64,000 nt of DNA, taken from the NCBI RefSeq assembly GCF_044324785.1, contig NZ_CP172127.1; one strand, written 5' to 3'. This DNA comes from Escherichia coli. Lineage in GTDB: Bacteria; Pseudomonadota; Gammaproteobacteria; Enterobacterales; Enterobacteriaceae. The position numbers and the translations under genes are program-made. Each line of letters starts with the position of its first letter. Position 1 is the stretch's first letter. Below the pieces are notes generated by a model. It saw only the letters and a program-made list of their open reading frames with translations, searched no databases and was not told the origin of the DNA. Below are positions 62,228 through 62,262 of this stretch, one piece after another.

Positions 62228-62262
62228 TTAGCTGAGTTTTTCGCGAAAAATTCAGCTAACGC
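62228..62262. repeat. 35-bp near-perfect palindrome in the purH leader
   Basis: gttagctgagtttttcgcgaaaaattcagctaac: 10-bp arms with one mismatch around a palindromic tttttcgcgaaaaa core, between the pur box and the purH start. Confidence 0.6.

Follow-up and report, generated by a model that had tools for sequence, protein, structure and literature searches.

A conserved palindrome ahead of purH in Escherichia coli points to a structured RNA leader of the purHD transcript

The purHD operon is a textbook case of regulation by the repressor PurR. Unlike the other purine enzymes, PurH must also clear the 5-aminoimidazole-4-carboxamide ribonucleotide (AICAR) that histidine synthesis produces, and its activity depends on 10-formyl-tetrahydrofolate. 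Across many other bacteria and phyla, purH is the main target of the ZTP riboswitch. Here, we analysed a window of 64,000 nucleotides (nt) from Escherichia coli (assembly GCF_044324785.1, contig NZ_CP172127.1), in which the plus strand encodes purH-purD and the minus strand carries the rrnE promoters and the 16S gene, and we studied a near-perfect palindrome situated between the PurR operator and the purH start codon. Our comparison of purH leaders supports the view that this palindrome encodes a conserved stem-loop in the RNA of the purHD leader. No leader role for purHD has been assigned in RefSeq, Rfam or the literature searched.

The inverted repeat spans 38 base pairs (bp) at positions 62225-62262 and is composed of two 19-nt arms without a spacer, GCGTTAGCTGAGTTTTTCG (62225-62243) and CGAAAAATTCAGCTAACGC (62244-62262). 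The arms are 95% complementary, and their lone mismatch, G62236:T62251, turns into a G.U wobble pair in RNA. The original prediction had described a 35-bp palindrome at 62228-62262; the palindrome is real, but its coordinates were off by 1-3 nt, as the noted 34-nt string occupies 62227-62260 and the repeat extends two bases further on each side. The distances claimed with it, about 30 bp to the purH ATG and about 40 bp to the PurR operator, agree with 32 nt measured to the ATG at 62295 and 37 nt measured from the pur box at 62172-62187. A chance origin is ruled out by shuffling and fold energy. No palindrome match within three mismatches appeared in 100 shuffles of the window that preserved dinucleotides, and the 121-nt leader RNA, the folding of which had been proposed as a check, reached −41 kcal/mol compared to −25.7 ± 3.3 kcal/mol for shuffled sequences (z = −4.7; 0 of 200 shuffles as stable). 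In E. coli RNA, the palindrome gives a stem of about 17 bp (16 Watson-Crick pairs and one G.U pair) with a CGCG loop on top.

A PurH-based scan yielded 80 loci for comparison. Leaders from Enterobacteriaceae, Erwiniaceae, Yersiniaceae and Pectobacteriaceae share a common plan consisting of a C-run/G-run hairpin (hairpin 1), a long hairpin corresponding to the palindrome (hairpin 2) and a GCUCU flank. Across the four families, the base of hairpin 2 reads GCGUUA(G/C/U)CUGA...UCA(G/C)(C/G)UAACGC. Its tip varies in sequence and length, with arm-to-arm spans that range between 34 nt (Escherichia) and 98 nt (Rahnella), and the number of predicted stem pairs is 17 in E. coli and its closest relatives, 16-31 across Enterobacteriaceae and 18-36 in the other families. 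At ten loci of Yersiniaceae and Erwiniaceae, the tips repeatedly end in a CUCUAUAUAGAG-type palindrome (e.g. TTCTTCTATATAGAAGAA and CTCTCTATATAGAGAG), which is missing from Enterobacteriaceae.

Covariation was assessed in an ungapped alignment of 37 distinct leaders; it comprises an 8-nt 5' flank with a 16-nt arm and a 16-nt arm with an 8-nt tail, the tip being excised. Standard pairs are formed by 88.7% of the alignment cells, compared to 30-41% when the partners are slid against each other, and two-sided compensatory changes were found in 9 of 16 basal pairs; 0 of 500 shuffles reached the observed values. One basal pair is GC in 18 leaders, CG in 11, UA in 4 and UG in 2, another is G.U in 17, A-U in 16 and G-C in 4, and a third position is mismatched as C.C or C.U in 19. 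RNAalifold, applied to 26 full-length leaders, independently returned the same two hairpins; 11 of the 19 pairs it predicted carry compensatory changes. In addition, the sense strand folds better than the antisense strand in 29 of the 37 leaders, with 70 versus 36 G.U pairs.

But, does the palindrome act as RNA or as DNA? The original prediction had allowed for both a strong hairpin in the mRNA leader and a dimeric protein-binding site. The former is favoured by the position downstream of the pur box and −10 hexamer, by the compensatory changes and by the bias of G.U pairs towards the sense strand. A G.U pair, as present in 17 leaders at one position, is an A.C mismatch on the opposite strand, which argues for an RNA made from the purH strand; likewise, the variable arm spans fit a hairpin, whereas a dimer on duplex DNA could not tolerate them. 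The idea of a DNA-level element, be it a dimeric regulator site or a supercoil-driven cruciform near the strong divergent rrnE promoters, draws on the near-perfect symmetry, on the AT-rich centre, on the proximity of rrnE P1/P2 and on a weak resemblance of the arms to PurR half-sites (GCTAACG versus GCAAACG). These half-site-like motifs are, however, everted relative to a LacI-family operator, and the palindrome lacks the fixed, abutting half-sites with a central CpG that characterise operators of the LacI/PurR type. The variation in arm spacing (0 to about 60 additional bases, depending on the genus) and non-Watson-Crick pairs biased to sense-strand G.U speak against the protein-binding site, and Rfam calls no rRNA or tRNA gene in eight loci with the Vibrio-type hairpin described below (each 1.5 kb upstream of purH). 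Taken together, we regard an action at the DNA level as very unlikely. An auxiliary PurR site was considered separately and rejected: the pur box shares only 9 of 16 positions with the 16-mer that surrounds the 3' arm, and the variable spacing counts against it.

Conservation of the element is very strong across enteric bacteria. The palindrome is neither confined to one strain nor, judging from promoter geometry, situated upstream of the transcription start, the two points that had been named as speaking against the original prediction. Within Enterobacteriaceae, identity to E. coli amounts to 86-100% in the basal stem and flanks, versus 45-86% at four-fold degenerate sites of purH, and a divergent E. 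coli strain shows two differences in promoter plus leader versus about 14 in the spacer that precedes the promoter. Little or no variation is seen in the 3' strand UAACGCUCU among the 37 leaders, even where its 5' partner changes (alignment columns T35, A36, A37, G39, T41, C42 and T43 are invariant, C38 and C40 conserved in at least 90%), which indicates that the primary sequence matters besides pairing. The element is absent from the leaders of Pasteurellaceae, Budvicia, Edwardsiella and Rosenbergiella. Selection, covariation and strand bias are thus what would be expected of a conserved structured leader RNA, with transcription and the position of its start inferred from the conserved promoter and the fold in vivo from the alignment. 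In this respect, the purH leader hairpin looks like an ordinary, so far uncatalogued, leader element.

The element is also a single-copy feature of the species. A 71-nt query located it in 5419 of 5426 complete E. coli genomes, with at least 99% identity in 5332. Hairpin 2 scored two places per genome (lowest 2, median 2; 5419 genomes) because a palindrome matches both strands of one locus, and a second copy was not found in the window. There is no annotated feature under the locus match in the complete E. coli genomes; in particular, the MG1655 record NC_000913.3 has no feature between purH and rrsE and no repeat region there. A REP (repetitive extragenic palindromic) element or another mobile element was thus rejected, in line with the original prediction, which had recognised in the palindrome neither a REP element nor a named operator; a named operator it is not either. 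Could it then be a neutral leftover, for instance the remnant of a decayed mobile element or of a terminator? The lack of any known phenotype or annotation would suit such a relic, and conserved ends around a variable interior superficially resemble a miniature inverted-repeat element. Yet, the sequence occurs once per E. coli genome and at the same orthologous position across four families, its conservation is far above that of silent sites and compensatory changes accompany it, which makes absence of function extremely improbable in our view. The 9-mer AGCUAACGC of the 3' arm (62254-62262) recurs in the 16S rRNA gene rrsE (GGAGCUAACGCGUUAAGUCG; 60810-60818, minus strand). Mimicry of 16S rRNA was rejected, since the similarity does not extend further and is not kept in other genera, and is probably due to chance.

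Within the genome, the structure appears to be specific for purH. A covariance model built from the leader alignment scored 101.5 bits at the E. coli purH leader, and its only other match in the window, of 25 bits, was to the palindrome itself read on the opposite strand. Held-out purH leaders were recognised with 82 bits in Pluralibacter, 27 bits in Mangrovibacter and 16-18 bits in Photorhabdus, whereas no match was obtained in any other pur leader tested. No similar hairpin or motif was found upstream of purM, purL, purC, purE, cvpA, purT, hflD, purB, guaB and purA in E. coli, and these ten regions without a match rule out an RNA motif common to the pur regulon. The Photorhabdus caribbeanensis purH leader is about 120 nt longer than those of two other Photorhabdus species, with the extra sequence about 70-190 nt upstream of the ATG; this sequence, GAATCCCTGGGAGC...GTGACCAGGGTGAGTG, resembles an enterobacterial repetitive intergenic consensus (ERIC) element, judging from the ERIC consensus primers. 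The Rfam covariance scan of positions 61800-62500 (E ≤ 10) gave no meaningful match, the ZTP riboswitch included. Its sole match on the palindrome, to the animal microRNA precursor mir-725, is a chance hit (23.8 bits versus a cut-off of 76), and nothing reached the gathering score in 14 purH loci of other genera. Our literature search revealed nothing that assigns a role to the purH leader hairpin. Two papers from 1989 and 1990 on the purHD sequence reportedly mention dyad symmetries in the leader.

An analogous structure precedes purH beyond Enterobacterales. Leaders of Vibrionaceae, Ferrimonas and Shewanella contain, about 25-120 nt ahead of purH, a rod of the form (A)AGGUAUUUACCAAA...UUUGGCAAAUAUCUU with a variable tip and a conserved base (AAGGUAUUUACCAAA...UUUGGCAAAUAUCUU); a few pairs above this base, one position is unpaired and mostly A.C. 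RNAalifold predicted 15 pairs for these Vibrio-type leaders, 7 of them with compensatory changes (Aeromonas was not in the alignment). One Aeromonas purH leader shows a similar hairpin by eye. The Enterobacterales covariance model does not detect the Vibrio-type leaders, and we therefore call the hairpins analogous only and do not claim homology; an Rfam family for the Vibrio-type hairpin was not found in the purH loci of other genera scanned.

Could such a rod be regulated? The base of the rod, the mismatch and the flanks might bind a trans-acting protein or a small molecule such as ZMP/ZTP or folate, providing purH with an input independent of PurR. The conservation of UAACGCUCU exceeds the needs of pairing, partners that do not form Watson-Crick pairs are met repeatedly slightly above the base (C.C or C.U in 19 of the 37 Enterobacterales leaders; mostly A.C in the Vibrio type), the element is specific for purH, and many other phyla use the ZTP riboswitch at this very gene, yet no Rfam family matches these leaders. 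Against this stands that a near-perfect rod with a dispensable tip is unlike known ligand-binding aptamers, that there is no conserved alternative fold and that hairpin 2 never pairs with the Shine-Dalgarno sequence; moreover, we know of no candidate partner. We thus consider a regulated riboregulator unlikely. The same doubt applies to the broader proposal that the rods of Enterobacterales and those of Vibrionaceae, Ferrimonas and Shewanella constitute a new class of purH-specific riboregulators, in which base, mismatch and GCUCU would dock a Nus complex, a new RNA-binding regulator, ZMP/ZTP or folate.

The layout of the promoter and leader on the plus strand provides the frame for the remaining alternatives. 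The pur box GCGCAAACGTTTTCGT (62172-62187) is the reverse complement of the motif ACGAAAACGTTTGCGC determined for purH-purD by chromatin immunoprecipitation on microarrays with PurR (PMC3159470). It is directly adjoined by TACAAT (62188-62193), which we take as the −10 hexamer. A regular-expression search recovered the box together with the hexamer from 50 of 51 Enterobacterales loci upstream of purH as well as from the window, and the hexamer beside the box reads TA(C/A/G/T)(A/T)AT in every locus with a box; a consensus promoter scan did not call the purHD promoter, the −35 element of which is poor. Promoter geometry, i.e. a distance of 6-7 nt from the −10 hexamer, places the putative transcription start at 62200-62201. 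With a start near 62200, the leader would measure about 95 nt and the palindrome would lie at about +26 to +63.

Hairpin 1, GCCCC-GUUA-GGGGC (62213-62226), was recognised in the sequence and independently predicted by RNAalifold. It abuts hairpin 2 (62225-62262; inverted repeat, folding, covariation and covariance model), with its last two bases common to both. Its loop varies and its stem is kept, including a double compensatory change to CCUCU/AGAGG in Enterobacter sp. Bisph1. On the minus strand, positions 62226-62200 comprise hairpin 1 (GCCCCTAACGGGGC) followed by ATCCTTATTTTT and were flagged as terminator-like. We rejected a minus-strand terminator, as only Escherichia and Citrobacter have the T-run and the bias of the wobble pairs points to the plus strand. 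The invariant 3' flank (62261-62267) reads GCUCUCU in the window, with UAACGCUCU conserved in each of the 37 leaders, and its start resembles boxA (GYUCU...). Further downstream, a small hairpin AAAUCC-AGG-GGAUUU (62277-62291) overlaps the Shine-Dalgarno sequence AGGGGA (62283-62288) in Enterobacteriaceae only. Families outside Enterobacteriaceae have CAAAGCCAAGGGAUAAAACC without this small hairpin. The coding sequence of purH (62295-63884; 529 amino acids), annotated as such in E. coli genomes, is followed by purD, which starts at 63897.

Several ways in which these parts might interact were tried and rejected. A switch that sequesters the Shine-Dalgarno sequence through the C-run, the G-run and CUCU lacks both pairing of hairpin 2 with the Shine-Dalgarno sequence and a consistent long-range partner; according to the partition function, this sequence pairs mostly locally and never with hairpin 2 in the E. 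coli leader. Alternative pairing of the G-run with CUCU is broken in Enterobacter sp. Bisph1 by the compensatory change that preserves hairpin 1. A pseudoknot made of GGAU:AUCC and CCCC:GGGG shows no covariation and is not conserved outside Enterobacteriaceae, and the putative leader peptide AUGCCCCGUUAG has no usable Shine-Dalgarno spacing and a non-conserved AUG.

The pyrimidine-rich sequence behind hairpin 2 invites comparison with terminators. With its GC-rich base and its pyrimidine/U-rich tail, the hairpin could act as a weak intrinsic terminator or a hairpin-dependent pause that stops a fraction of the purHD transcripts ahead of the coding region, and hairpin 1, which competes for two basal pairs through the two-base overlap, might modulate termination. 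Conservation of the stem base and the adjoining 3' sequence with a free tip is what a terminator needs; tails are U-rich in Erwiniaceae and Yersiniaceae (UCUUUUUAUU and UCUUAUUUAU, with 5-6 T in the first 8 positions), and in several Vibrio leaders the analogous hairpin is followed by ...AUAUCUUUAUUUUU. In E. coli, however, the tail is UCUCUGUA, which has 4 T in 8 and never two consecutive ones, and the terminator scan was negative. Measured against the usual definition of an intrinsic terminator, at least 5 T in 8 after a GC-rich stem, the E. coli tail TCTCTGTA falls short, although the stem base GCG/CGC is GC-rich. C42 in the tail is invariant in all 37 leaders although U would terminate better, there is neither a leader peptide nor an evident antiterminator and the stems are far longer than those of usual terminators. 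The name purH does not appear in the 710,333 characters covered of four supplement files from the Term-seq study by Adams et al. 2021, a catalogue of 3' ends in which an end listed without a gene name would have been missed. These observations argue against hairpin 2 as an efficient intrinsic terminator in E. coli, and we judge attenuation or pausing at this site to be improbable.

The same flank prompts a comparison with boxA, the consensus of which is GYUCUUUAANA with a critical C4 (PMC5725501). As a site of the boxB-boxA type, the flank would recruit NusB/NusE together with SuhB, NusA and NusG to the elongating polymerase and modulate translation or Rho termination as at suhB. It corresponds to boxA positions 1-5 (G-Y-U-C-U), including C4 and the pyrimidine at position 2. 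GYTCTTTAANA is matched at 10 of 11 positions in Dickeya (GCUCUUUAAAG) and Brenneria (GUUCUUUAAUG) and at 9 of 11 in Serratia and Rahnella, and Pantoea carries the lambda-type CGCUCUUA. A nucleotide-synthesis gene, prsA, has a boxA in three genera (PMC5725501), and purH adjoins an rrn operon. In contrast, E. coli and all Enterobacteriaceae have GCUCUCUGUAA, with C at position 6 (half of the inactivating double mutation C4T/T6C) and without a UUUAA core; the E. coli sequence GCTCTCTGTAA keeps C4 and misses positions 6, 8 and 9 of the consensus. Positions 6-11 are prone to insertions and deletions within Yersiniaceae, the stem can take up some of the motif (GC) and the published catalogue of boxA sites, restricted to perfect matches, does not list purH. 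A Nus site in the purH leader hence has little probability in our eyes.

What, then, might the leader do? From sequence comparison, we tentatively infer a cis-acting leader module that affects the stability or processing of purHD mRNA, a reading we consider possible rather than probable. Hairpin 2 behaves as a self-contained rod, as its pairing probability with the Shine-Dalgarno sequence was 0.00-0.01 in all 40 leaders modelled with partition functions. Conservation is concentrated in the helix base (GCGUUA.../...UAACGC) and in the single-stranded GCUCU on its 3' side, whereas sequence and length of the tip can change freely. Stacked on each other, hairpins 1 and 2 would make up a rigid 5' module by which the fate of the purHD transcript is determined. 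This module may obstruct attack by RNases that depend on the 5' end; alternatively, its double-stranded RNA may be used for docking or processing by RNase III or by another RNA-binding protein that recognises the conserved base. By either route, stability and output of purHD mRNA would be tuned independently of PurR. Such tuning is plausible because PurH recycles histidine-derived AICAR while purines repress the promoter.

Several points weigh against such a stability or processing module. Purely as a stabiliser or obstacle, the hairpin needs neither a near-invariant basal stem nor the GCUCU sequence; near-invariance of base and flank hints at a sequence-specific partner. The E. coli stem of about 17 bp, or 20-22 bp if G-run:CUCU pairs extend it, is rather short for RNase III, the substrates of which contain double-stranded RNA that runs mostly without interruption over about two turns of the helix (~20-22 bp). 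Among the RNase III sites listed in the part of Gordon et al. 2017 covered, the only one in the purH-rrsE region is in the rrsE leader; a site at purHD could escape because cultures grown with purines would repress purHD. The hairpin begins about 13-25 nt from the presumed 5' end and not at it, the start itself being placed by promoter geometry. Finally, the covariation counts are inflated by the shared ancestry of the leaders.

Two further observations concern the neighbourhood of the leader. A double DnaA box, TTACGCACA-gag-TTATCCACA, occupies positions 62065-62085 of the window, with the upstream region of rrnE on one side and the purH promoter on the other; the consensus box TTATCCACA recurs in most of the Enterobacterales sequences upstream of purH that we examined, and the site 'upstream of purH' reported from chromatin immunoprecipitation sequencing of DnaA corresponds to this double box (PMC11317965). 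A sub-threshold Rfam match to 'Yersinia sRNA 197' (61800-62033, minus strand; 103 bits versus a cut-off of 167) covers the P1/P2 promoters and the leader of rrnE, which suggests that this family overlaps rrn leader sequence.

That an element has been kept for hundreds of millions of years solely before purH suggests that E. coli controls this gene at a second, post-transcriptional level. If its role is confined to stability or processing, the hairpin would be an ordinary addition to the map of leader structures. Should the rod respond to a signal, it would fill the place held elsewhere by the ZTP riboswitch, and a riboregulator would mean PurR-independent control of AICAR and one-carbon homeostasis in gamma-proteobacteria without a ZTP riboswitch.

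How does the purH hairpin compare with known systems? Like the stabilising or obstacle stem-loops of the ompA type at 5' ends, it is stable and autonomous, lies upstream of the ribosome-binding site and does not pair with it. Unlike these, the purH hairpins start about 13 nt from the presumed 5' end, and base and 3' flank are conserved beyond structural need. With the leader hairpins cleaved by RNase III in rnc, pnp and adhE it shares a long near-perfect stem with an upper part that varies while double-strandedness is kept, but the E. coli purH stem measures only about 17-22 bp and has no cleavage site among the RNase III data covered. As in rrn boxB-boxA and the suhB boxA (Baniulyte et al. 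2017, PMC5725501), the hairpin is followed by G-Y-U-C-U about 30-40 nt before the start codon, with near-consensus matches of the flank in Pectobacteriaceae and Yersiniaceae; in E. coli, however, GCUCUCUGUAA misses positions 6, 8 and 9, and the distal half is not conserved. REP elements and bacterial interspersed mosaic elements are likewise imperfect palindromes of about 35-40 bp in intergenic regions of E. coli, whereas the purH palindrome is single-copy, not annotated as a repeat, different in sequence and situated in a 5' leader instead of a 3' or intercistronic position. Compared to the ZTP (pfl) riboswitch (RF01750), the rod has no match in sequence or structure and no pseudoknotted two-domain architecture; like this riboswitch, the purH leader RNA is structured, specific for purH and placed for control beyond the purine repressor.

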